Below, piece after piece: positions 23,042-46,810 of a stretch of DNA of 48,302 bases. Every line of letters starts with the position of its first letter. Positions within the stretch are counted from its first letter, which is position 1. The position numbers and the translations under genes were made by a program. Source of the DNA: Escherichia phage vB_EcoD_Opt-719; sequence record OL539451.1; one strand, 5' to 3'. The notes under the pieces are model-generated. The model did no database searches. It was not told the origin of the DNA and was given only the letters and a program-made list of their open reading frames with translations.

Positions 23042-23263
23042 TCAACCTCCACAATCGTGGTCTTTAAAATTCCGCTCAGAGACGTACTGAAACGAGAATG
23101 GATATCCGGCCCTAAGTAAAAACTCCTCACCGCGCTTCTGCGTGCCAAAAACATAAACAGAGTAACTCATTCCGCTTGACTCATAAATCGCCGTACAAGT
23201 GCGCTCCGGCATCGTAGAGCACCCGCCTAACGTCATTGCTGCGATAACGATTAATTTTTTCAT
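23042..23263 (-). CDS. small lipoprotein, candidate Cor-like superinfection-exclusion factor
   Basis: 73 aa from ATG 23263 (track GTG 23272); signal peptide MKKLIVIAAMTLGGC with lipobox LGGC; AAGGTG RBS; small lipoprotein next to tail genes. Confidence 0.45.
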   Translation of the reverse strand: MKKLIVIAAMTLGGCSTMPERTCTAIYESSGMSYSVYVFGTQKRGEEFLLRAGYPFSFQYVSERNFKDHDCGG

Positions 23264-23273
23264 CTCATTCACC

Positions 23274-23378
23274 TTAGAAACCGTTAAAGTTTGAAGCCAG
23301 CAGCAGAACCCAAACGAAGAAGCTGGTAGTTGCTACGCCGAAGATTGCAGAGATTAAGTTAGTGGTTAAGTTAGTCAT
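23274..23378 (-). CDS. hypothetical small membrane peptide (34 aa)
   Basis: MTNLTTNLISAIFGVATTSFFVWVLLLASNFNGF; AAGGA RBS; stop abuts lipoprotein start; same minus-strand operon. Confidence 0.3.
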   Translation of the reverse strand: MTNLTTNLISAIFGVATTSFFVWVLLLASNFNGF

Positions 23379-23444
23379 TTTGTATTCCTTAGTAAGTATG
23401 TTTCGTTTCGATGGAGTAACTATAGCAAAGGCTTCAGCGGTAGT

Positions 23445-23465
23445 CTTTAGCAAATCGTGCTATTT
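23445..23465 (-). promoter_or_regulatory. promoter-cassette motif copy (minus orientation)
   Basis: reverse complement AAATAGCACGATTTGCTAAAG followed on minus strand by TATAGT and CATCGAAACGAAAC leader toward the lipoprotein operon. Confidence 0.45.
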
Positions 23466-31747: not shown

Positions 31748-33691
31748 ATGACTATGCGATTGAAATCAATACAAAAACAAATTGAAGAACTAGGCAAAGA
31801 TAAGATTAAAGAGATTCAGGAAAAATTCACATCATCAAATGGCATGGTTCCTTACAGCTATCAGTGCGTGATGTATGACGAGATCGCCAAGCGCATTGGT
31901 AAATATAAATACCCATTCATCGCTATGGCTTCAGTATCCGCTGGTAAGACTCTGGTTTTCGCCATGGTCGCAAAGCGTTGCTCTGAACTTGGTTTGCCGA
32001 TGCTTTTACTTGCGAGACAGGCTGAGCTTGTTAGCCAGAGCGCCTCTGAAATTTCAGACTACGGCGTTCCTAACTCTGTCTATTGTTCAGGCCTTGGCAT
32101 TAAGTCCTCTTATTTCCCTGTAATTGTTGGCTCTGAAGGTACAGTTGTTGGTGGCCTTGATAAGGCGCTTGGTGACTTCTGCCCCGCAGTAGTCGCAATA
32201 GATGAATGTCACATGGTAGATGACCAGGATATCGCTGAAGCAATAGACAACAATGAGACATCTCAGCAAGCGAGAGATAAAGGACGAAGCCAGTACACAA
32301 TAATTATCCTTACATTGATGGAGAGATGCCGCGCTAAGTATGGTCGTGAATTGAGAATATTTGGCCTGACTGGTTCTCCTTTCCGCGGGACCGCGCCAAT
32401 TGTTGTAGAGAACCTTAAGGAACTTGGATTCTGGCGTGAAGCAGCGACTAACATTGATACCAACTATCTGGTTGAGTTTGGCTCTGTTGTTCCTACAAAT
32501 TTCGGGTCTACTGATGGTGTTGGCTATGACCTATCTGAGTTTGATACCTCAGCTGATGATGGTGTTCAGGACTTCACTAAATCCCAGCTAGAAGCAATGG
32601 AGAAGAAGATTCAGCAGTCGGGCACAATGACAGCTGAGATTATGAAGAAGGTGTGGTTGGCAGCTAAAGAACGAAACGGTGTTCTCGTGACGTGCGCTGG
32701 TGAGCGCCATTGCAAGGAGGCTGCAAGCTATCTTCCTGAAGGTGAAACTTACTGCATAATTACTGGAAAAACTGGTGAGAAGCAGCGTAAGGAACTACTG
32801 GATAAGTGCTTCACTGGAGAGATTAAATATTGCTTCCAGGTTCAGGCGCTTACTACTGGGGTTAACGTTCCAACATGGGATACTAGCGTAATTCTTCGCA
32901 AGATTGGCAGCCTAACTCTTCTAGTCCAACTTCTAGGTCGTGGAATGCGCAAACTGAAGAAGCTACATGAAGACAAGGGAATGGTTAAGAATGACCATTT
33001 AGTTTTAGATTTCGCTGGAACTATGGACTCGATGGCTTCACTGTACTTCAATCCCATTCTTGAGCAAGCTCAGTATCAGCTACGGAAGAGTAACGGCAAG
33101 GAGACTAAGCAGTGTCCAGTTTGCGGAACTGAGAACAGCTTCTTTGCTCGCCGCTGTATGCATGTTGACGAAAGCAATAATCGATGTGAATACTTCTGGG
33201 TTAGTCGCACATGCGAAGACCAGAAAGACCCTCGCACTGGTAAAGTTATAGTTAAAGGATGCGGGGTTCAGAATGACGTTGCAGCTAAGATTTGCAGGGG
33301 CTGTGATTGCACATTACTTGACCCGAACCTAAAGTTAAGCGGGAAACATTACAGAAAAAACGATTGGTTTGACGTTGTTGATTTTAAGGTTGGACTAACA
33401 AAGAACCAATCAGGAATCATCTATAACTATGTGCTTGATGATGGCATGGGCGGAACCTTCAAGGCTTATGAGGTTTTCTTCGTAGAGTCTGACCATAGAG
33501 TATGTAAAACTCTCTGGCTGAATAATGGAATTAAAGGTCACGTAGTTGATATGAATGCCAAGCGATATATGGCTGCATATCGAAATGCTCGCAAGATTAT
33601 GGAGTACGCGCAGTACATTCAGGCCCCGAAGCGAGTAACACACCGCAAGACCGCTAAAGGCGGAGATAACATGGCAAATAAGGAGTTCTGA
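31748..33691 (+). CDS. SF2 DNA helicase (DEAH-like) with C-terminal zinc ribbon
   Basis: Walker A SVSAGKTLV, DECH box, C-terminal CPVCGTEN...C...C...C cysteine cluster. Confidence 0.7.
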   Translation: MTMRLKSIQKQIEELGKDKIKEIQEKFTSSNGMVPYSYQCVMYDEIAKRIGKYKYPFIAMASVSAGKTLVFAMVAKRCSELGLPMLLLARQAELVSQSASEISDYGVPNSVYCSGLGIKSSYFPVIVGSEGTVVGGLDKALGDFCPAVVAIDECHMVDDQDIAEAIDNNETSQQARDKGRSQYTIIILTLMERCRAKYGRELRIFGLTGSPFRGTAPIVVENLKELGFWREAATNIDTNYLVEFGSVVPTNFGSTDGVGYDLSEFDTSADDGVQDFTKSQLEAMEKKIQQSGTMTAEIMKKVWLAAKERNGVLVTCAGERHCKEAASYLPEGETYCIITGKTGEKQRKELLDKCFTGEIKYCFQVQALTTGVNVPTWDTSVILRKIGSLTLLVQLLGRGMRKLKKLHEDKGMVKNDHLVLDFAGTMDSMASLYFNPILEQAQYQLRKSNGKETKQCPVCGTENSFFARRCMHVDESNNRCEYFWVSRTCEDQKDPRTGKVIVKGCGVQNDVAAKICRGCDCTLLDPNLKLSGKHYRKNDWFDVVDFKVGLTKNQSGIIYNYVLDDGMGGTFKAYEVFFVESDHRVCKTLWLNNGIKGHVVDMNAKRYMAAYRNARKIMEYAQYIQAPKRVTHRKTAKGGDNMANKEF

Positions 33692-34080
33692 TGATTAAGG
33701 TATTTTACGATAAGACAAGCACGGACAAGGCCAAAGAGTTTGTACACCAGGTTAACTGTATCGCATGGGTTCGCCATAACCACCCTGAGATATTTGCATG
33801 GCACGTGAAGAATGAAGGCTTAAAGTCAATCGGCACTGCAGTGAAGGATAAGCAGGAGGGCGTAATCAAGGGAGTGTCGGATATATTACTGATCGGGCCA
33901 AAAGGATTTGGAGCAATAGAACTTAAGCGAGCAATAAAATCAGATAGCAAAGTTTCGAAGGAGCAAAAGGAGTTTCTTGAAAAGGTATCAGAAACAGGCG
34001 GTTACGCAGCAATCTGCTACGGATTCGAAATGTTTAAACTGGCAATTGAGGATTATCTATCAAATAGCACGAATTGCTAA
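33691..34080 (+). CDS. putative VRR-NUC-like nuclease
   Basis: 129 aa; PD-(D/E)XK-like core GVSDILLIGPKGFGAIELKR; ATG overlaps helicase stop (ATGA). Confidence 0.45.
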   Translation: MIKVFYDKTSTDKAKEFVHQVNCIAWVRHNHPEIFAWHVKNEGLKSIGTAVKDKQEGVIKGVSDILLIGPKGFGAIELKRAIKSDSKVSKEQKEFLEKVSETGGYAAICYGFEMFKLAIEDYLSNSTNC

Positions 34081-34081
34081 A
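34063..34081 (+). promoter_or_regulatory. promoter-cassette motif copy
   Basis: AAATAGCACGAATTGCTAAA; supplies TAA stop (C-terminal NSTNC) of upstream gene; GGATGG, TGTATTAT and CATCGAAACGAAA downstream. Confidence 0.5.
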
Positions 34082-34146
34082 GACGAAAACCAAGGATGGT
34101 GTATTATCACTTCATCGAAACGAAACGCACAAATGAGGCAAACAAA

Positions 34147-34470
34147 ATGAAAAAGTTAATTATCGCAACTATCCTGATGGCGGCAGCAAGTGTTAATGCA
34201 GACGCGAAAGCTAACAACTGTCATGACATCGTTCAGTACGCTTACAACCTTGCAGTTAACGAATGGGGCGCTAACAAAACTGATGTGGTTAATGCTAAAA
34301 CTGTCAGTCTCTACCTGGATACATGTGAAATTGCTATCAAATCACGAGGCACTTACACTAAAGATGAACTTACAGCTAAGTATGATTCAGTAAAAACAAG
34401 CACTAAATCAGAGATGGATGTTCAGGATATTGTAATCCTTGTATCTAGAATCTCTTACGATAAGGCATAA
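34147..34470 (+). CDS. secreted/periplasmic protein (107 aa), hypothetical
   Basis: Sec-type signal peptide MKKLIIATILMAAASVNA with AxA cleavage site; start ATG 34147 (track TTG 34096). Confidence 0.5.
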   Translation: MKKLIIATILMAAASVNADAKANNCHDIVQYAYNLAVNEWGANKTDVVNAKTVSLYLDTCEIAIKSRGTYTKDELTAKYDSVKTSTKSEMDVQDIVILVSRISYDKA

Positions 34471-34474
34471 TTTT

Positions 34475-34702
34475 ATGAAACTTTCTTTAGAAACAAAGTG
34501 GGAACTGTTCCAGGGATTAGCAGCAAAGAAGCTGGTTGATAACGGATTTAATCAAGATCCTTTTGAAATGGCTAGCAGTCTAGATATGAGCTTTGAAGAA
34601 GATTACTTGCACGCTGATTTAGAGGATTGGGAAGATATGATGCAAGGTAACATTGAAGAGTTTAAAGAGGATGTGCCTGAACTTTTTGCGGAGATTCACT
34701 AA
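34475..34702 (+). CDS. hypothetical acidic protein (75 aa)
   Basis: start ATG 34475 (track TTG 34439); Asp/Glu-rich C-terminal half. Confidence 0.4.
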   Translation: MKLSLETKWELFQGLAAKKLVDNGFNQDPFEMASSLDMSFEEDYLHADLEDWEDMMQGNIEEFKEDVPELFAEIH

Positions 34703-35004
34703 TGAGTGAGGAACTTAAAGTATTCTATAAAGCCTATGCCGCTTGGCTTGACGCTGGCGCTGTTAACAAGGGTGCATTCTGGCGTGACTGTGGTTTGTGT
34801 ACGTGTATCGTGTCTTGGACGAACGACGATGAAGGTTATGAGTTACTGAATGAAATGAAATCGCAGTTTACCGCCGCTGGTCTGAGCGATCGATTCCCGT
34901 TCAACGTTAGCGACGAGGATTACGCCCGGGAGCATCTCAATAGCGCCATGCACCTTAACGAAGACCGCGTAGCCTGGGTACGCAAACATGTGGAGATCCA
35001 CTAA
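34702..35004 (+). CDS. hypothetical protein (100 aa)
   Basis: ATG overlaps upstream TAA (TAATG); contains CGLCTC cysteine cluster. Confidence 0.45.
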   Translation: MSEELKVFYKAYAAWLDAGAVNKGAFWRDCGLCTCIVSWTNDDEGYELLNEMKSQFTAAGLSDRFPFNVSDEDYAREHLNSAMHLNEDRVAWVRKHVEIH

Positions 35005-35141
35005 TGAAGATTGATAGAAAGCAATTCTCAAAAGCTCAAATTAACGCATGGATTGCAACGCAGTTTAATAACTCAGAACATTGGATTAAAGCAATCGAAC
35101 AGCTTAGGTGTGCTTATGATACTAAAAACCGGAAGGGCTGA
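35004..35141 (+). CDS. hypothetical small basic protein (45 aa)
   Basis: ATG overlaps upstream TAA (TAATG); alternative to the TTG-initiated track ORF 35011..35355. Confidence 0.3.
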   Translation: MKIDRKQFSKAQINAWIATQFNNSEHWIKAIEQLRCAYDTKNRKG

Positions 35142-35355
35142 GGTCTGGAAGCACTGCGGAGAGGCTGGACTACAGGATGATATCAAGATAATAAGTAAGT
35201 ACTTTGACATTGATGATATCTCTGTAGTTTATGATGGAAAATTCAGCTATATGAACCAGCGCCCTCGAAAGTATGTAAGAGTTCCGGCAACCCCAAGCCT
35301 TGCGATGTATCGCGAGGAAGGTAAGAAGATATTTAAGAAAGGTGCTAAGAAATGA
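35116..35355 (+). CDS. hypothetical protein (80 aa)
   Basis: ATG 35116 with AGGTG RBS; same frame as track ORF 35011..35355 whose TTG start lacks RBS. Confidence 0.4.
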   Translation: MILKTGRAEVWKHCGEAGLQDDIKIISKYFDIDDISVVYDGKFSYMNQRPRKYVRVPATPSLAMYREEGKKIFKKGAKK

Positions 35356-35609
35356 ATTTACCTGGACTTGATTTTGATGAGAGTAAGTATCCAGTTGTCT
35401 TTTTTGGTGAGAAGCCTTACCGGAAGATCCCTTTTGCTGATTGGATTCCACCAGACTATCTTGATGTGCTGGTTCAGATTGAAGTTGGTAAGGCTGAACT
35501 CATGTATTACTCACCAGGCTGCAACATGATGATGCCTAGTGAATACTCTCCGGCAATAGCCGCGCTTGAAACTGAGTTTCTTGATTACTGGCTAAAAGAA
35601 GTTAAATAG
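35352..35609 (+). CDS. hypothetical protein (85 aa)
   Basis: ATG overlaps upstream stop (ATGA); stop TAG lies inside promoter-cassette motif. Confidence 0.45.
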   Translation: MNLPGLDFDESKYPVVFFGEKPYRKIPFADWIPPDYLDVLVQIEVGKAELMYYSPGCNMMMPSEYSPAIAALETEFLDYWLKEVK

Positions 35610-35623
35610 CACTTTTTGTTAAA
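35604..35623 (+). promoter_or_regulatory. promoter-cassette motif copy
   Basis: AAATAGCACTTTTTGTTAAA; GGATGG, CGTATAGT and CATCGAAACGAGAGAAG leader downstream. Confidence 0.5.
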
Positions 35624-35677
35624 ACGCACCGCCAAGGATGGCGTATAGTGTGTTCATCGAAACGAGAGAAGCTTTAG

Positions 35678-35746
35678 ATGAAAACATTACTACCGTTGAT
35701 GGCTATGCCATTAACCTTTATAATCATGTACTTCATAATCTGCTAA
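35678..35746 (+). CDS. hypothetical leader micro-ORF (22 aa, hydrophobic)
   Basis: occupies the usual first-cistron position of the promoter cassette (GAGAGAAG RBS); MKTLLPLMAMPLTFIIMYFIIC; precedes the HTH-phosphoesterase gene. Confidence 0.3.
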   Translation: MKTLLPLMAMPLTFIIMYFIIC

Positions 35747-35760
35747 CAGGAAATTAAATA

Positions 35761-36894
35761 ATGGCTATTGCTAAAATTACGAACGAACAACTTAAAGAAG
35801 AACTAGCTAACGGTATGACTAACAAATCAATCGCAGAGAAGTACGGTATGAATATTCGTAACGTAGAACTGCGTCGCAGCAAGCTGGCTAAGGCTGGGGA
35901 TGGTCACGGTCGCGATGTTAGTAACCTAATTCCTCAAGGCTACATGGTTAAGGGTGTATCTAGCCTCGTTGATAATGATGGAAATGTAAAGTTGCAGTGG
36001 GTTAAGTCCTCCATTGATGCAGAAAAGCTTGAAGAGATTATGAATCAAGCGCGAGAGGCATTTTCTAGTGAGTTACCAAAAGAAAAAGCAGTGAAGTCTG
36101 AAGGTCTGGATTTTGATGAAGATACTTTAGCCATGTATCCAGTGTTTGACCTTCATATTGGCGCGATGGCTCATAAGCATGAGTGTGGAGAAAACTACGA
36201 CACAGCAACAGCTGAGAAAGTAATGAATGACTACTTTGATTACGCTGTTCAGAAAGCTCCAAATTCAAAGAATGCGGTACTAGTTCTTGGAGGAGATTTA
36301 CTTCACTATGATTCTCTAGAGGCTAAAACTCCAGCTAGTGGTCACATCCTTGATAGTGACAGTCGCTACGCTAAAATTGTTTATGTTTGCATACGTTCGG
36401 TTCGTCGTGCAATTAGAAACATGCTTAGCAAACATGAAAATGTAGAGGTTAAAGTTATATCCGGGAATCATGATGAAAGTGGTATGGTTTGGTTGCGAGC
36501 TGCACTTGCGGCATTTTATGAGGAAGAACCACGCGTAAGTATTGATGTTAGCCCCGCGGCAATGATGGTAACTAAGTTTGGTTCTACAATGCTCGGGTTC
36601 ACTCACGGCCATCAAATGCGGAAAGCTGATACTCGCCTTACGGTTATGGCTACTGACTGGCGACGTGACTTTGGCTTAAGTGATTATGTATACACCCACT
36701 CAGGCCACTGGCATTCACAGAAGATTACAGAAACAAATCTTGGTATTGATGAGGTTCATGGTCAGCTTGGTTCACCAGATGCATATAGTGCGAATGGTGG
36801 ATGGCGCTCACAAAGGCAGGCTGCGGTAATCATATATCATAAAGAGTTTGGTGAAGTTGGTCGCTTTATCTGTCGCCCTGAAATGTTTAAATAA
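35761..36894 (+). CDS. calcineurin-like metallophosphoesterase (Mre11/SbcD-like motifs) with N-terminal HTH
   Basis: ordered motifs DLHIG, GGDLLH, GNHDE, THGH, GHWH; N-terminal HTH-like NKSIAEKYGMNIRNVELRRSKL. Confidence 0.6.
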   Translation: MAIAKITNEQLKEELANGMTNKSIAEKYGMNIRNVELRRSKLAKAGDGHGRDVSNLIPQGYMVKGVSSLVDNDGNVKLQWVKSSIDAEKLEEIMNQAREAFSSELPKEKAVKSEGLDFDEDTLAMYPVFDLHIGAMAHKHECGENYDTATAEKVMNDYFDYAVQKAPNSKNAVLVLGGDLLHYDSLEAKTPASGHILDSDSRYAKIVYVCIRSVRRAIRNMLSKHENVEVKVISGNHDESGMVWLRAALAAFYEEEPRVSIDVSPAAMMVTKFGSTMLGFTHGHQMRKADTRLTVMATDWRRDFGLSDYVYTHSGHWHSQKITETNLGIDEVHGQLGSPDAYSANGGWRSQRQAAVIIYHKEFGEVGRFICRPEMFK

Positions 36895-39437: not shown

Positions 39438-41021
39438 TCACCCCAGCAGTCGTGGATTAATGTAAACCTTATCACCAATCAGGCAGGTGTAGTTTTTCTC
39501 ATCAAGCATCGGAAGTAAATGGTCTTTAATCTTAGCCATTACGCCAGCCTGAGCCTCAAACGGTCTAACCTTACGTGCCGCTTCATAGAGTGATCGCAAC
39601 CCCACCACTCCTTTACTGTTCTTTCCTTGCTTAATAAGAATATCAATTAGCTTGTTCATCTCTGCATTATCACCAGCGTGACCAGCAGCATTAGCGGAAG
39701 ACAAGTAAGTCTTACTCAGTTCTTCAAACATAAGAAGAGCTTCTTGCATCGTTTCAAGCCCAATCTCCCTGGACTTCTGCGGACTCCCTCCGTTTGGATT
39801 AAACCAGTTACGGATAGTGTGAAGAACTGCCGCTATCCTGATTACCTGCTTATCCATTTTACCTAACGCTCCGCGCAACATTGTGTGCGAGTACTTACCG
39901 CCATCTGCAAGGTGCGGCTCCATTTCCTGACGAGCACGGTTGAGGTGCTTCATTGCTGAATTACTGACAGTTAGTTTTACATCTTGCTCGCTCATTATTT
40001 CATGAACAAGACGAAAGTAATCTGCCTTTAATCCACCATCAATTGGTTTATATGTTGACTCGCCCTCATCATCAACAAACACACGCTCACCAAGGAATGA
40101 CTTCTCGCGCACAAGAAGGAAACGCTCTGATACACCGATACCGCGAGCGCCAGCATTCATGATTGCGACGATTGTTTCATCCTGCGCAATTACAGAAATG
40201 CAACCCATAGCAATAAAGCTCATGTTGTTCTCTGCGTTCGCACGCGCGATAGATACGTTACCAGCATCCCAGGCCTTCAGAACAAGTTCGCTGTTAGTTT
40301 TCTTCGAGCCATCACCGTAAGTCATACCAAGAAGTGAGTTAACACTTGTCGCTTCATCAGAAATCACGGAGAAGTTGCCCTGGCGGTTGTTGATTCGCGC
40401 AAGACCTTCCGGGGTAGTATCAGATACCGGAAACACAATGTCGCACAGCTTTTCTAACTTCTCTTCCAACTCCTCTTTATCTTCGAATAATCCAGCCATC
40501 TCAGATGGTGACTTCTCTTGCTTCATTTCTTTTGCCAGGGCTGACAATTTAGCCATAATCTTCTTACGGTCACGCTTGCGTAATTCGTTCAATCGCTCAG
40601 TCTCAGCAATCATTGGCGCTAGTGCGAGTGAGTTAATAGCTGACTTACCAGTTGATGGAGGCTGACTGGTTACTACGTACAGCGCGGTAGGCTGCTGAGT
40701 TCCATGATACTCAACCGTAAAGCGACCAAGCATTGCTGCTGAAATACACCCAAGGAAGTGCATGTAAGCTGAAGACTCTGGGAACTGAACTGAGCGTGCG
40801 ATATTGCTTGATAATTTACCAACGACATCACAATCATTTCCTAGCGAGATGACCGGATATTTGTCACCAGTTGAATCAATTTCTACCGGAGCCTTCCAGA
40901 ATGATGCACTCTGTCGATAACCATTGGCATTAATAGCAACTCGCAATGGTGGTAAATTTTCAGCTGCCGCAACAGACATTACTTGTTCGACTGATAATTT
41001 ATCTTCGTTAAAATCAAACAT
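39438..41021 (-). CDS. P-loop NTPase with N- and C-terminal modules shared with mini-paralog 43328..43870
   Basis: 527 aa; deviant Walker A QPPSTGKS (aa ~120-127) and Walker B FSVISDEAT (aa ~218-224); N-terminal 45 aa and C-terminal ~75 aa ~60-65% identical to the 180-aa plus-strand protein. Confidence 0.55.
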   Translation of the reverse strand: MFDFNEDKLSVEQVMSVAAAENLPPLRVAINANGYRQSASFWKAPVEIDSTGDKYPVISLGNDCDVVGKLSSNIARSVQFPESSAYMHFLGCISAAMLGRFTVEYHGTQQPTALYVVTSQPPSTGKSAINSLALAPMIAETERLNELRKRDRKKIMAKLSALAKEMKQEKSPSEMAGLFEDKEELEEKLEKLCDIVFPVSDTTPEGLARINNRQGNFSVISDEATSVNSLLGMTYGDGSKKTNSELVLKAWDAGNVSIARANAENNMSFIAMGCISVIAQDETIVAIMNAGARGIGVSERFLLVREKSFLGERVFVDDEGESTYKPIDGGLKADYFRLVHEIMSEQDVKLTVSNSAMKHLNRARQEMEPHLADGGKYSHTMLRGALGKMDKQVIRIAAVLHTIRNWFNPNGGSPQKSREIGLETMQEALLMFEELSKTYLSSANAAGHAGDNAEMNKLIDILIKQGKNSKGVVGLRSLYEAARKVRPFEAQAGVMAKIKDHLLPMLDEKNYTCLIGDKVYINPRLLG

Positions 41022-41683: not shown

Positions 41684-41923
41684 TTATCTCACCTCATCAA
41701 AAGTGGCGATTCCAGGGATGAACATACCAACCTTCCAGCCAGCTATAGCAATCCACCCCGAATCGTGCTTGTGCGGACGCTCAGCGCCATTAATCACCCA
41801 TTCGTTCGGGATTGTCTTACCGTTAATGATAAGCGGCTCAGCGTCGTATACAGAGTCTTTTACGAACGGTGTTAAAACCTTCTTATCCGTGCTTTGGATA
41901 ACGTTAGTGCAGCGAATCTTCAT
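41684..41923 (-). CDS. hypothetical protein (79 aa)
   Basis: GAGGT RBS; overlaps stop of upstream acidic gene. Confidence 0.45.
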   Translation of the reverse strand: MKIRCTNVIQSTDKKVLTPFVKDSVYDAEPLIINGKTIPNEWVINGAERPHKHDSGWIAIAGWKVGMFIPGIATFDEVR

Positions 41924-42138
41924 GCTAATACCTCGATTTCTTCTTCCGTAACGCTGAATTCTTCACCTTCATAAACAGCCGTGATGCCATCAATTACAAC
42001 ATCGCGCTTCGCATCAATGAAGTACTCACCTTCAAGTTCAAACACCTCAACCTCTTCACCAACTTCATAGCCCATCTCAGCCAGGCTTAATGCATCTTCG
42101 TCAAACTTGATTTCGTTGTTGATAATAATCGCTTTCAT
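41920..42138 (-). CDS. hypothetical acidic protein (72 aa), paralog of 46598..46810
   Basis: start ATG 42138 with GAGGAG RBS (track TTG 42177); MKAIIINNEIKFDED...GYEVGEEVEV versus MKIKIIDVDYVTDDE...GFEIGDVVEV. Confidence 0.45.
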   Translation of the reverse strand: MKAIIINNEIKFDEDALSLAEMGYEVGEEVEVFELEGEYFIDAKRDVVIDGITAVYEGEEFSVTEEEIEVLA

Positions 42139-42812: not shown

Positions 42813-43328
42813 ATGAGTAATACAATTCGTGAAGCAAACCCGACACTTGGCGACCTGGTGCGCCACCTTGTTAAGATGGCACTCAATTCAGAGGATGGAA
42901 GCGTAACAGTTCCCGTTAAGTTGCTTTACAAGAATCTTTACGGAGAAATTGATAACGGCTATGTAGCAGCCGACTTTAGACCTGGCGGCAAATATTCACT
43001 TCCAAAGCTTAAGGCTTCCTATGTTTCAAATACAGCCAGTAGAATGCAGGAAGTTAAAGACGCAGATAAGCGCGCAAGGTTCTCTTGTGGAGAGATGGAT
43101 TATAATGGTGATGAGCATTATTGCGTAAAAATCACAATGGTCGACGGAGCTGTTAAGAATGGAACCCGAGCTAAGACAAGCAGTCAATTAGAGGAGAAAG
43201 CGGTAAGCGAGTTTAAAGCCAGGCTACTTAAGCTTTCCCCTAGCGTTGCAGGCATGAGTGGTGATGAACTTAAGGGCGCGGTAACTATGATTAACGCATA
43301 TCAGGAAATGATTAAGGAGACTAAATAA
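42813..43328 (+). CDS. hypothetical protein (171 aa)
   Basis: first gene of rightward early block; GAGAGGAG RBS. Confidence 0.5.
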   Translation: MSNTIREANPTLGDLVRHLVKMALNSEDGSVTVPVKLLYKNLYGEIDNGYVAADFRPGGKYSLPKLKASYVSNTASRMQEVKDADKRARFSCGEMDYNGDEHYCVKITMVDGAVKNGTRAKTSSQLEEKAVSEFKARLLKLSPSVAGMSGDELKGAVTMINAYQEMIKETK

Positions 43329-44107: not shown

Positions 44108-44247
44108 AACACATTGGATGGCTGGTAAACGGAACGTTCTACTCACTAACCGACGCAGTAAGGGTGGAAAGAATTAGAGTTAACTGCGGACGAAATGTCC
44201 AGATTCTTGAAATTTACGCAGAGGAGGAAGTATGCGTAAGGTACTGA
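44104..44247 (+). CDS. hypothetical small protein (47 aa)
   Basis: ATG overlaps upstream TGA (ATGA); 3' end overlaps start of membrane-protein gene; GGAG RBS. Confidence 0.3.
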   Translation: MKHIGWLVNGTFYSLTDAVRVERIRVNCGRNVQILEIYAEEEVCVRY

Positions 44248-44708
44248 TGATATGCGTCTATGTTGCCATATTCTTATTGGCAAACCTCCTGGTAGCCTCA
44301 TTTGGTCCAGCGGTAACTCCATTTAACGCACTTTTTCTTATAGCGGCAGACATGGTATTAAGGGACAGGATTCAGTTTGAGAGCGGTGCGGCATGGTCAA
44401 TACTAGCATGCTTCCTTGCCGGATTTGCGACTGTATTAATAGCGCCAGGTTCAGAGATGATTGCTTTAGCATCTGGCCTATCATGCTTACTTGCTGGATC
44501 AGCTTCAGCGATTGCATTCAAATTAAAGTCTGGTGGATTTTTTCAGAAGGCGTTGCCAGCAAACGTAATTGCTGCTGCGGTAGATTCAATTGCATTCCCA
44601 TTAATTGCTTTCGGGTCTATAATGCCAGGCATAACAGCAGCCCAGTTTGCCGCTAAAACTATTGGCGCATCAATCATACTATTAATCATAAGGAAATTAT
44701 CTAAGTGA
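44232..44708 (+). CDS. polytopic inner-membrane protein, tentatively YhhQ/Vut-like (DUF165) transporter
   Basis: 158 aa, ~5 predicted TM helices, GAGGAGG RBS; family guess from size, topology and conserved-looking Asp/Arg residues (AADMVLRDR, AVDSIAFPLIAF); unverified. Confidence 0.4.
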   Translation: MRKVLMICVYVAIFLLANLLVASFGPAVTPFNALFLIAADMVLRDRIQFESGAAWSILACFLAGFATVLIAPGSEMIALASGLSCLLAGSASAIAFKLKSGGFFQKALPANVIAAAVDSIAFPLIAFGSIMPGITAAQFAAKTIGASIILLIIRKLSK

Positions 44709-46541: not shown

Positions 46542-46597
46542 CATCAATCGCAGGGATGCGTTACTATTACTAAATCGAAACGAACTAGGAAGAAGAA

Positions 46598-46810
46598 ATG
46601 AAAATTAAAATTATCGATGTTGATTATGTTACTGATGACGAGTCTATCACGCTTCGCGAATGCGGCTTCGAGATTGGCGATGTTGTAGAGGTGTCTGGTA
46701 AGTACAACAACGGAGAGCTTTCAATCCAGGCAATCCGTGAGACTGATTTTGTTAATGTTGGCAATGAGGTTAGTATAAGCGAATTTGAATATGAGGTAGT
46801 GGAAGAATGA
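46598..46810 (+). CDS. hypothetical acidic protein (70 aa), paralog of 41920..42138
   Basis: GGAAGAAG RBS; MKIKIIDVDYVTDDE...GFEIGDVVEV...EYEVVEE. Confidence 0.45.
   Translation: MKIKIIDVDYVTDDESITLRECGFEIGDVVEVSGKYNNGELSIQAIRETDFVNVGNEVSISEFEYEVVEE

Follow-up and report, generated by a model that had tools for sequence, protein, structure and literature searches.

Phage P1 encodes Sim, a soluble periplasmic protein processed from a signal-peptide-bearing precursor, which blocks the entry of superinfecting phage DNA after adsorption. The virulent coliphage T4 produces Imm, an inner-membrane protein, as well as Sp (Spackle, gp61.3), a small, helical, signal-peptide-bearing periplasmic protein that is made before lysis and acts after adsorption, independently of the outer-membrane receptor. 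Cor (T1, phi80), Llp (T5), and Rtp45 (Rtp) are small exported siphophage lipoproteins with a lipobox, encoded beside the receptor-binding locus and each directed at one receptor, which shield an infected cell against renewed infection. Both Llp and Rtp45 exert their effect on the periplasmic side (PMC12685063). We compared these systems with two adjacent genes in the window, the whole 48,302-nucleotide stretch analyzed here, which represents a complete Rogunavirinae (T1-like) phage genome and is identical over the compared stretch to Phleasolo, Sadiya, and Opt-79. The preliminary description had placed a secreted 107-aa protein and a strongly acidic 75-aa protein between positions 34147 and 34702. 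Both ORFs are present at these coordinates, and we refer to them as ORF-A and ORF-B, respectively. The features of this locus are:

33691..34080, plus strand: VRR-NUC nuclease gene (PF08774, E = 7.4e-6; synteny kept in all related loci)
34081..34146, plus strand: leader between the VRR-NUC gene and ORF-A (five-phage alignment, upstream frames)
34147..34470, plus strand: ORF-A, 107-aa precursor of a small, predicted exported protein (ORF, signal-peptide features, dN/dS, relatives, AF2)
34147 to ~34200, plus strand: predicted signal peptide of ORF-A (rule-based features)
34201..34467, plus strand: predicted mature ORF-A protein of ~89 aa (rule-based cleavage site)
34475..34702, plus strand: ORF-B, 75-aa acidic four-helix protein of PHROG 2676 (HMM, AF2, survey)

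ORF-A and ORF-B sit in a helicase/VRR-NUC/exonuclease block, and gene order suggests that this block belongs to the early region. A holin/endolysin/spanin cassette follows ~3 kb downstream of ORF-A on the same strand. GenBank places the start of ORF-A at 34096, whereas the preliminary description had chosen 34147, which, judged by sequence, is the better start. The upstream extension contains an in-frame stop in one close relative, and the upstream ATG is replaced by GTG in phiEB49. Additionally, a Shine-Dalgarno motif, GAGG (34135..34138), lies 8 nt ahead of the ATG at 34147, while the ATG at 34096 is preceded by a directly abutting AAGG. The leader is conserved even where a phage carries an unrelated gene downstream of it, and in the alignment of five phages similarity stops at the ATG; we detected neither a structured-RNA signal (z = +0.5) nor an Rfam match in this leader. 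Given that pairwise dN/dS values among four close homologues were 0.065–0.21 in five of six comparisons (dS was saturated in the sixth), ORF-A is a real gene, on which, by this codon-level measure, purifying selection acts.

The classical cleavable signal peptide described for ORF-A in the earlier reading held up under rule-based evaluation. The N-terminus reads MKKLIIATILMAAASVNA followed by DAKANNC, and it combines a basic n-region (MKK, residues 1–3; a trait retained in eight of nine aligned relatives), an uncharged h-region of 11–13 residues (LIIATILMAAA; 11-residue Kyte-Doolittle mean up to 2.68), and small residues at positions −3 and −1 of a predicted cleavage site (VNA/D), with ADA/K and AKA/N also fitting the rule. 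The ElisaCorrea relative retains the cleavage site as SVNA/DSC, and every relative has small residues just ahead of the first cysteine. No lipobox was found, as the first cysteine follows ANN in ORF-A (ADS in relatives) and no [LVI][ASTVI][GAS]C motif is present. Relatives at 31–38% identity have signal peptides of different sequence but like properties and keep both cysteines, Cys25 and Cys60, which are invariant. These n-, h-, and c-region hallmarks, conserved as properties in divergent relatives, point to Sec export and non-lipidated processing by signal peptidase I.

Structure prediction, proposed in the preliminary description as a check, yielded confident models for both proteins. The AF2 model of mature ORF-A has five helical segments and a pLDDT of 86.5, on an alignment of four sequences and with one of the five models reaching a pLDDT of only 50.7, while the ORF-B model has four helices and a pLDDT of 93.4. 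Foldseek searches of the ORF-A model against the PDB returned no match better than E = 1.4, and Sp, Llp, Rtp45, and RI were not matched; the best that the ORF-A profile reached among PDB sequences was E = 0.085, for an unrelated chain. Against BFVD, the model matched only phiEB49 gp19 and, weakly (TM ~0.6), uncharacterized proteins from phages Tsm2 and Pocis76. In Pfam, NCBIfam, PADLOC, and PHROGs, ORF-A and its relatives had no more than weak signal-peptide matches, and ORF-A did not match PHROG 1119. We infer export and a disulfide for ORF-A, as well as the functions that we propose below for both genes.

The ORF-A family is rare. It was present in 13 of 50,697 phage records, exclusively T1-like and always directly after the VRR-NUC gene. 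In a set of 5.8 billion proteins the family accounted for only four clusters (90% identity), and a search of 1.84 billion representatives added only four further real relatives. A 352-aa protein with near-identical tandem repeats (P0128) was discarded as a spurious relative, its similarity being limited to five short repeated stretches, the best of which covers 24 query positions, and a pattern-based scan for relatives in bacterial genomes confirmed no locus. Hosts, as written in the records of the family, include E. coli, Klebsiella, Serratia, Citrobacter, and Salmonella; the family is tied to no one host.

The VRR-NUC gene is the conserved left border of a variable slot, which holds ORF-A in the window. 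We surveyed this slot in 80 related loci plus the window, a set of 81 related, and thus not independent, genomes. It was empty in 19 of them and encoded cytoplasmic proteins alone in 9, while the remaining 53 had a protein scored as exported or membrane-located. Exported or membrane proteins thus account for 53 of 62 occupied slots, compared with a genome-wide baseline of 12 of 79 proteins by the same heuristic, although the enrichment is weaker when counted per family (roughly 17–19 families, of which about 9 are exported or membrane-located). The occupants represent non-homologous families: Rogue1-type, Rtp, and Tls phages have unrelated genes in the position of ORF-A, with similarity breaking exactly at the ATG. 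Given that the slot is empty in T1 and encodes a cytoplasmic protein in Rogue1-type phages, it is not exclusively for envelope proteins. When we searched for remote homology between ORF-A and other slot families, hhalign aligned signal peptides only, including for a 150-aa family with the same 35-residue cysteine spacing; the exception was the protein at locus L044, a divergent but true member of the ORF-A family (hhalign probability 84%).

Two features of accessory cassettes, replacement at a fixed position and deviant base composition, were found for ORF-A, while a promoter and terminator of its own were not: a scan limited to consensus sequences detected no promoter-like or terminator-like site flanking ORF-A on the plus strand, and none belonging to ORF-B. 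GC content was 0.36–0.39 over positions 34100–34700, compared with 0.42–0.48 upstream and 0.43–0.50 downstream, a dip that also spans most of ORF-B. ORF-A is therefore probably a dispensable accessory gene in an exchange slot.

These distributions do not agree with the earlier view of ORF-A and ORF-B as a pair. ORF-A occurs in 13 phage records and at 4 of the 81 surveyed loci, whereas ORF-B occurs in 231 records and exactly one homologue is present at each of the 81 loci. Moreover, most relatives have a Dam methylase gene separating the position of ORF-A from that of ORF-B. ORF-A and ORF-B are unrelated adjacent genes that are not co-inherited.

Two further features of the genome, located ~11 kb from ORF-A, bear on a possible role in exclusion:

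23042..23263, minus strand: Cor superinfection-exclusion lipoprotein (tblastn, phrog_1119, lipobox)
23274..23453, minus strand: small C-terminal-transmembrane protein adjoining Cor (ORF; blastp to slot proteins)

The Cor gene shares 74% identity with the T1 gene (tblastn), matches phrog_1119 (E = 3.3e-27), has the lipobox LGGC, and is annotated as Cor in many records. The phage is thus already equipped with a FhuA receptor blocker, and given that Cor is present, a second exclusion factor is not required. The product of the adjoining gene has homologues in the VRR-NUC slot of seven other loci (L061, L085, L087, L088, L093, L094, and L096; blastp E = 5e-10 to 1e-6). The preliminary description had regarded ORF-A as a candidate superinfection-exclusion factor or envelope modifier. 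This proposal gains from the slot contents and from the presence of Cor-neighbor homologues in the slot, and a role at the envelope is plausible, while the variant in which ORF-A masks a receptor is disfavored.

Our preferred explanation, which we put forward tentatively, is that ORF-A mediates receptor-independent exclusion from the periplasm and that ORF-B, an unrelated gene, serves phage DNA metabolism by binding a conserved partner. The 107-aa ORF-A precursor would be exported via Sec, and signal peptidase I would cut it, with the end of VNA (residue 18) as the most likely site. In the periplasm, the mature protein would form a small, soluble, helical domain, probably with a Cys25–Cys60 disulfide. 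It would then act in the periplasm of the infected cell and not via an outer-membrane receptor. Most likely, it would bind a host or phage component that is exposed to the periplasm and required once adsorption has occurred, thereby keeping out the DNA of later phages. Such action would be a form of superinfection exclusion comparable to that by P1 Sim or T4 Spackle/Imm. We read the putative entry block as receptor-independent because ORF-A does not track receptor type and because Cor is already present. Relatives of ORF-A occur in FhuA-type and TolC-type phages alike, and Tls and ElisaCorrea differ in their slot genes even though their J (tail-tip) proteins are 97.5% identical, a comparison on which we rejected co-variation of ORF-A with the receptor-binding domain. 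Co-occurrence with Cor was likewise rejected, as ElisaCorrea and Sephi301i have ORF-A relatives and no Cor. Siphophages have been reported to need the periplasmic or inner-membrane host factors DcrB, SdaC, and MetQ after adsorption (bioRxiv 10.64898/2026.04.02.716166), and these are therefore plausible targets for a factor of the ORF-A type. Our literature search recovered no functional study of the ORF-A or ORF-B family, neither protein has a homologue with an established function, and the HIDEN-SEQ preprint does not include T1-like phages.

Other readings of ORF-A are less compatible with these results. As a receptor-masking exclusion protein, it would sit on the periplasmic face of the phage's own receptor and block adsorption like Cor, Llp, and Rtp45. 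Its predicted export and its pre-lysis operon placement would suit this role, and in TolC-type T1-like phages gpJ is not followed by an exclusion gene (PMC8594841), yet their slot is occupied by a lipoprotein or a relative of ORF-A, with the N-terminus of the Tls slot lipoprotein weakly matching the Cor family. However, we consider receptor masking very unlikely: ORF-A has no lipobox, unlike Cor, Llp, and Rtp45 (PMC12685063), it is encoded ~11 kb from gpJ and Cor instead of beside the receptor-binding locus, Cor is already encoded here, and the PDB search gave no structural match to Llp or Rtp45. The distribution of relatives across FhuA-type and TolC-type tips, and the different slot genes behind the near-identical tips of Tls and ElisaCorrea, also argue against it. 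Periplasmic lysis control, by an antiholin or by a modulator of the SAR endolysin or spanin, has a precedent in T4 RI, a small periplasmic holin regulator, and would be in line with a small, helical, predicted periplasmic protein encoded ~3 kb upstream of the lysis cassette on the same strand. Nevertheless, ORF-A does not adjoin that cassette, most phages that share its T1-type holin lack it, and its model matched neither RI nor another solved structure, and we know of no lysis inhibition in T1-like phages, which leaves this role with little probability.

A rare and patchy gene in a variable accessory position could also encode a counter-defense or immunity factor against a host envelope anti-phage system, a bacteriocin, or a periplasmic enzyme; HXS, a periplasmic defense blocking phage DNA entry, has been described recently (PMC13128918). 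The failure of ORF-A to match anything in PADLOC, Pfam, NCBIfam, or PHROGs, and its lack of ties to a particular host, make this quite unlikely. Finally, the N-terminus of ORF-A might be an uncleaved membrane anchor, or the protein might not be exported at all, given that cleavage was judged by rule, that three alternative −3/−1 sites exist, and that GenBank annotators picked a longer N-terminus. This is hardly probable, as the hydrophobic core of ~11–13 residues is too short for a stable transmembrane helix, VNA/D is kept in ElisaCorrea, all relatives have small residues before the first cysteine, and the longer N-terminus is interrupted by a stop codon in one relative.

Going beyond receptor-independent exclusion by ORF-A itself, the position after VRR-NUC may represent a previously undescribed hot spot of exchangeable envelope-targeted exclusion genes in T1-like phages. 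ORF-A would then found a new fold family, that of a soluble, disulfide-stabilized periplasmic protein imposing a receptor-independent, post-adsorption block on DNA entry, with DcrB, SdaC, MetQ, or the TonB/Tol machinery as possible targets, and in TolC-dependent phages the missing exclusion function would fall to the slot lipoproteins of the Tls type. This extended scheme is speculative, and we regard it as somewhat unlikely as a whole. As a practical rule, the slot survey also indicates where to look in T1-like phages for accessory genes that act on the envelope, and for the TolC-dependent phages it suggests a candidate exclusion factor.

ORF-B matched PHROG 2676 with E = 2.9e-23, its residues 1–71 aligning to profile positions 4–77 of 78. 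The acidity noted for this 75-aa protein in the preliminary description was borne out: it has 20 D/E versus 5 K/R residues (27% D/E), a net charge of about −15, and a pI of 4.05, and its C-terminal 38 residues include 14 D/E and 1 K/R. A pI below 4.2 was found for 6 of the 79 annotated proteins of the genome, and the acidity of ORF-B is not unusual in this context. Across the 81 homologues, net charge ranged from −15 to +1, with Tls-type members at pI 6.8–7.9, while positions D37, E41, E42, D43, D48, E50, D54, D59, E62, D66, and E69 were conserved within the Rogunavirinae/Braunvirinae set, which leaves room for a charge-dependent role in this lineage. The signature motif LDMSFEE was also conserved. 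Given that one homologue is present at all 81 loci, ORF-B is core-like, and all 231 phage records annotate it as 'hypothetical'. The best PDB match of the ORF-B model by Foldseek had an E of 1.3, PDB profile searches retrieved nothing relevant, and Pfam matches were at chance level only. According to our preferred explanation, ORF-B would bind a conserved protein partner via a surface centered on LDMSFEE and thereby assist or regulate phage DNA metabolism. The annotation of a 75-residue, confidently folded protein that is universal in the T1-like phages examined, with no function assigned, is a gap.

Two other roles for ORF-B would not involve a phage partner. ORF-B might instead be a host-takeover inhibitor that binds and blocks a conserved host enzyme of nucleic acids, such as RecBCD, RNA polymerase, H-NS, or UDG, for which T7 gp5.9 and lambda Gam are precedents. 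That ORF-B is small, acidic, helical, and conserved, in phages that carry their own RecE/Erf-type recombination genes, would be consistent with such activity; however, it showed no similarity to gp5.9 or Gam, and the neutral members of its family argue against a purely charge-based decoy, so that we regard this role as unlikely. The preliminary description had likened ORF-B to DNA-mimic anti-restriction proteins. In this role its acidic surface would mimic the phosphates of DNA and, as Ocr and ArdA do, occupy the DNA-binding site of restriction enzymes. In common with the mimics Ocr, ArdA, Arn, Gam, gp5.9, and Ugi, ORF-B is small, very acidic, and, according to its model, stably folded, and its acidic positions are kept within the Rogunavirinae/Braunvirinae set. 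Disorder, which together with the lack of a DNA-mimic surface had been named as evidence against mimicry, was not predicted (pLDDT 93.4). Even so, DNA mimicry appears highly improbable. Acidity is not a family-wide trait, as charge reaches +1 and Tls-type members are near neutral, and other small proteins of the genome are as acidic. Present at every surveyed T1-like locus and located within the replication block, ORF-B differs from typical anti-restriction genes, which are variable and lie at leading ends, and neither structure nor profile searches linked it to a solved protein, Ocr, ArdA, Arn, Gam, Ugi, and gp5.9 included. In addition, a few Drexlerviridae were remarkably sensitive to all restriction-modification systems tested in the BASEL study (PMC8594841). 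Mimics have diverse folds, so that a protein with no such match may still be a mimic.

Among described systems, P1 Sim is the closest functional analogue of the receptor-independent exclusion that we propose for ORF-A, although Sim is about twice the size, belongs to a temperate phage, and showed no homology to ORF-A in any search; to our knowledge, no Sim structure is available for comparison. T4 Sp resembles ORF-A as a small, helical, signal-peptide-bearing, pre-lysis coliphage product of the periplasm, the location being predicted for ORF-A. However, the two share no sequence similarity, nor fold similarity by Foldseek against the PDB, and we know of no counterpart in T1-like phages of the Sp target, the T4 tail lysozyme gp5. 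Cor, Llp, and Rtp45 are, like the predicted ORF-A product, small exported siphophage proteins, but differ from it in lipidation, in genomic position, and in their dedication to one receptor. The Tls gp60-type slot lipoproteins (PHROG 7420) share with ORF-A the position after VRR-NUC, a size of ~90 aa, and export, which is predicted for ORF-A, and even near-identical phages differ in whether they carry a gp60-type protein or an ORF-A relative. They are lipoproteins, however, and not homologues, as hhalign aligned the signal peptide only (probability 9%). Post-adsorption exclusion matters for the design of phage cocktails and sheds light on the passage of siphophage DNA through the periplasm. 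If ORF-A blocks entry from the periplasm with no receptor contact, it would add a new protein family, probably with a new target, to the few such mechanisms known.

The 3-kb stretch around the two genes studied here, ORF-A and ORF-B, was 100% identical to that of Escherichia phages vB_EcoD_Phleasolo and vB_EcoD_Sadiya and Klebsiella phage vB_KpnD_Opt-79, and ~87% identical to that of phiEB49 and Rogue1-type phages. Given that the three identical records (48,301–48,303 bp) belong to the Drexlerviridae, subfamily Rogunavirinae, the window is a complete T1-like siphophage genome. Over 33000..36000, three 100%-identical GenBank records differ in host (E. coli, Klebsiella pneumoniae, and Serratia marcescens). 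The + strand block runs from a helicase through a VRR-NUC nuclease, several small ORFs, and a metallophosphoesterase-type exonuclease to holin, endolysin, and spanin. No promoter-like or terminator-like sites were found between ORF-A/ORF-B and their neighbors, and we infer that both ORFs are co-transcribed with the DNA-metabolism genes and presumably expressed early. Features of this region and elsewhere in the genome were:

33691..34080, + strand: VRR-NUC nuclease gene
34147..34470, + strand: ORF-A, 107 aa, with signal peptide
34475..34702, + strand: ORF-B, 75 aa, acidic
35004..35141, + strand: 45-aa ORF matching PHROG 2055, "Kil protein for bacterial septation inhibition" (E = 1.1e-4), a possible FtsZ/division inhibitor; its homologue on contig L016 has a faint Pfam Lambda_Kil match
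39438..41021, − strand: 527-aa protein, DUF3987 (E = 5.5e-42), hypothetical in records
42813..43328, + strand: 171-aa protein, DUF7174 (E = 4.4e-49), hypothetical in records
44232..44708, + strand: "VUT family protein" in the Sadiya annotation, resembling a multi-pass membrane protein; neither its product nor the 276-aa ORF after it matched Pfam at E ≤ 0.01

Pairwise dN/dS among four ORF-A homologues (79–100% identity) was 0.065–0.21 in the five computable comparisons, dS being saturated in the sixth, which marks ORF-A as a protein-coding gene under purifying selection. The GenBank start at 34096 (124 aa), 51 nt upstream of the ATG at 34147, is probably wrong, given that an in-frame stop interrupts the extension (34096..34146) in a close relative and that the AAGG before ATG 34096 adjoins it directly, a spacing that is not usable. 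Additionally, the upstream ATG is GTG in phiEB49, and a Shine-Dalgarno GAGG lies 8 nt upstream of ATG 34147. Both ORFs were confirmed as observed in the preliminary description, whose start for ORF-A is preferable to that in GenBank. The N-terminus, MKKLIIATILMAAASVNA/DAKANNC, has a basic n-region, an 11–13-residue uncharged hydrophobic core, and small residues at −3/−1, this rule being satisfied after residues 18, 20, and 22; a lipobox was looked for and is absent. The earlier claim of a signal peptide is well founded on these sequence features, and ORF-A is very probably exported.

The ORF-A family is very small, with four clusters recovered from 5.8 billion proteins. HMMER, run in full over 1.84 billion representatives, gave five further matches, four of which were real relatives (P0125, P0126, P0127, and P0129); the remaining one, a 352-aa protein built of tandem repeats that are nearly identical, aligned in short repeated stretches only and was discarded. 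By tblastn, the family occurred in 13 of 50,697 phage records. These comprise phiEB49 and the three identical genomes plus, at 32–35% identity, Citrobacter phage ElisaCorrea and a Salmonella phage clade. Of the carriers, ElisaCorrea and Sephi301i were inspected, and both are assigned to Tlsvirus. No relative was confirmed when 185,579 genomes of bacteria and archaea were scanned by sequence pattern. All relatives have signal peptides of the same character but differing sequence, invariant Cys25 and Cys60, and a C-terminal helix that is likewise conserved and ends in (I/V)S(Y/F)D. AlphaFold2, using an alignment of only four sequences, predicted five helical segments in the 89-residue mature protein (pLDDT 86.5, pTM 0.79). 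Foldseek with this model retrieved nothing from the PDB (best E = 1.4) and, from BFVD, only phiEB49 gp19 plus weak matches with TM ~0.6, while Pfam, NCBIfam, PADLOC, and PHROGs gave nothing except weak N-terminal matches. ORF-A is best filed among exported phage accessory proteins; like ORF-B, it is already in public records as a hypothetical protein.

The ORF-A family lay directly 3′ of the VRR-NUC gene, a position hereafter called the slot, in every T1-like locus recovered. This adjacency could not show on two short contigs, one starting just upstream of the ORF-A relative and the other carrying P0127, the most divergent member, beside regulator-like genes and without VRR-NUC. Elsewhere the slot holds unrelated genes, encoding a 66-aa cytoplasmic protein in Rogue1-type phages and Rtp and a 92-aa lipoprotein (PHROG 7420) in Tls. 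Phages whose slot genes are unrelated share a conserved leader upstream of the slot-gene start, and similarity ends at the ATG, the hallmark of cassettes being exchanged at gene boundaries. GC content falls to 36–39% over ORF-A and most of ORF-B. The leader in the window (34065..34146), which had no RNA structure signal (z = +0.5) and no Rfam match, may mark a boundary for recombination or for translation coupling; the stop codon of VRR-NUC is spanned by an inverted repeat, TAGCA-cgaat-TGCTA (34065..34079).

We surveyed the slot in the window and in 80 IMG/VR loci with a gene for a VRR-NUC relative. Of these 81 loci, 53 had one or more exported or membrane proteins in the slot, 9 had cytoplasmic proteins alone, and in 19, T1 among them, the slot was empty. 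The occupants were non-homologous families.

Slot families (locus counts, like the totals above, are inflated by relatedness of loci)
Two lipoprotein families: 31 and 4 loci
Small C-terminal-transmembrane proteins: 7 loci
ORF-A family: 4 loci
150-aa signal-anchored proteins
80-aa membrane proteins
Single secreted proteins

At family level, roughly half of the families were envelope-targeted, well above the 15% baseline (12 of 79 annotated proteins of the window genome flagged by the same crude export/membrane heuristic). This envelope-gene slot is one of the two most useful by-products of the analysis. The two cysteines of the 150-aa signal-anchored protein (L039 2922..3413 and relatives, IMG/VR) are spaced as in ORF-A, at 35 residues; hhalign found no homology to ORF-A past the signal peptide. 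The small C-terminal-transmembrane family was homologous (blastp E = 5e-10 to 1e-6) to a product encoded beside Cor, the FhuA-blocking superinfection-exclusion lipoprotein, a homology that links the slot to the Cor cassette:

23042..23263, − strand: Cor lipoprotein, 74% identity to T1 Cor (PHROG 1119, E = 3.3e-27)
23274..23453, − strand: small C-terminal-transmembrane protein adjoining Cor, with homologues in the slot of seven other T1-like loci

ORF-A and ORF-B had been described as a pair, which they are not: their distributions are more than one order of magnitude apart. In most relatives, the two positions flank a Dam gene (in Tlsvirus-type phages, the order is ORF-A relative, Dam methylase, ORF-B homologue), and the two genes are adjacent here because Dam is absent at this site in Rogunavirinae. 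ORF-B occurred in 231 phage records by tblastn, all annotated as hypothetical, and matched PHROG 2676 (E = 2.9e-23); a profile search yielded >120 clusters, Rtp rtp56 and phiEB49 gp18 among them. In an iterative search, every one of the 81 loci yielded exactly one homologue, usually directly 3′ of Dam and often overlapping or abutting it. Given this distribution, ORF-B is universal in the replication/recombination block of these phages rather than a variable anti-defense gene. AlphaFold2 (121 sequences) predicted four helices at pLDDT 93.4, indicating a folded rather than disordered protein. The other most useful by-product is that ORF-B can be recognized as a universal T1-like phage protein, uncharacterized and with a confidently predicted structure.

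The preliminary description had proposed that ORF-B is a DNA-mimic anti-restriction protein. With 20 D/E against 5 K/R in 75 aa (net charge ~−15, pI 4.05), it is acidic, most so in its C-terminal half, and its acidic positions are conserved within Rogunavirinae and Braunvirinae, in line with that proposal. Nevertheless, family net charge ranges from −15 to +1, with Tls-type members at pI 6.8–7.9, and the features conserved throughout the family are the LDMSFEE motif and a hydrophobic/aromatic core. Nothing was retrieved from the PDB by Foldseek (best E = 1.3) or by two sequence-profile searches, nor from Pfam, and no solved DNA mimic resembled ORF-B by Foldseek or PDB-sequence profiles. Strong acidity is also unremarkable here (pI <4.2 in 6 of 79 proteins); two other small proteins are about as acidic or more (approximate positions, Sadiya coordinates minus 11):

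41920..42138, − strand: 72-aa protein, net charge −18
46597..46809, + strand: 70-aa protein, net charge −13

Together with the universality of the gene, these results leave the DNA-mimic proposal unsupported and very unlikely. In phage DNA metabolism, ORF-B is likelier to bind a conserved partner protein; the main alternative, that it inhibits a host enzyme, seems rather unlikely.

For ORF-A, the slot survey made the proposed envelope or exclusion role more plausible, though not as receptor masking. A bona fide Cor is encoded in the genome, and therefore FhuA masking is already covered. Cor is absent from ElisaCorrea and Sephi301i, which carry ORF-A relatives and whose J (receptor-binding) proteins have a long C-terminal extension, a feature linked in the literature to TolC targeting (PMC8594841). 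Tls has a slot lipoprotein and ElisaCorrea an ORF-A relative, despite J proteins that are 97.5% identical between the two (93% over the last 258 residues). Given these near-identical J proteins beside different slot genes, the slot gene does not co-vary with receptor specificity, and ORF-A is found with two receptor types, which argues against a blocker of the Cor/Llp/Rtp45 kind and leaves receptor masking improbable. Roles in lysis control or counter-defense are each similarly improbable. TolC-dependent T1-like phages have no receptor-binding/exclusion locus after gpJ (PMC8594841); they have a ~90-aa slot lipoprotein of PHROG 7420 (L021 1329..1751, Tls gp60; 31 IMG/VR loci), a candidate exclusion factor of these phages.

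What remains for ORF-A is a soluble periplasmic factor with a target common to these infections. In recent screens, siphophage subgroups are reported to need the periplasmic or inner-membrane host proteins DcrB, SdaC, and MetQ after adsorption (bioRxiv 10.64898/2026.04.02.716166), and proteins of this type are plausible targets. From the periplasm, ORF-A could exclude superinfecting phages at the DNA-entry step independently of the receptor, a reading that we favor tentatively. Known blockers of the Cor/Llp/Rtp45 type are lipoproteins encoded beside the receptor-binding locus (PMC12685063), whereas ORF-A has no lipobox and follows VRR-NUC; the manner of exclusion proposed for it would instead be that of P1 Sim and T4 Spackle and Imm.
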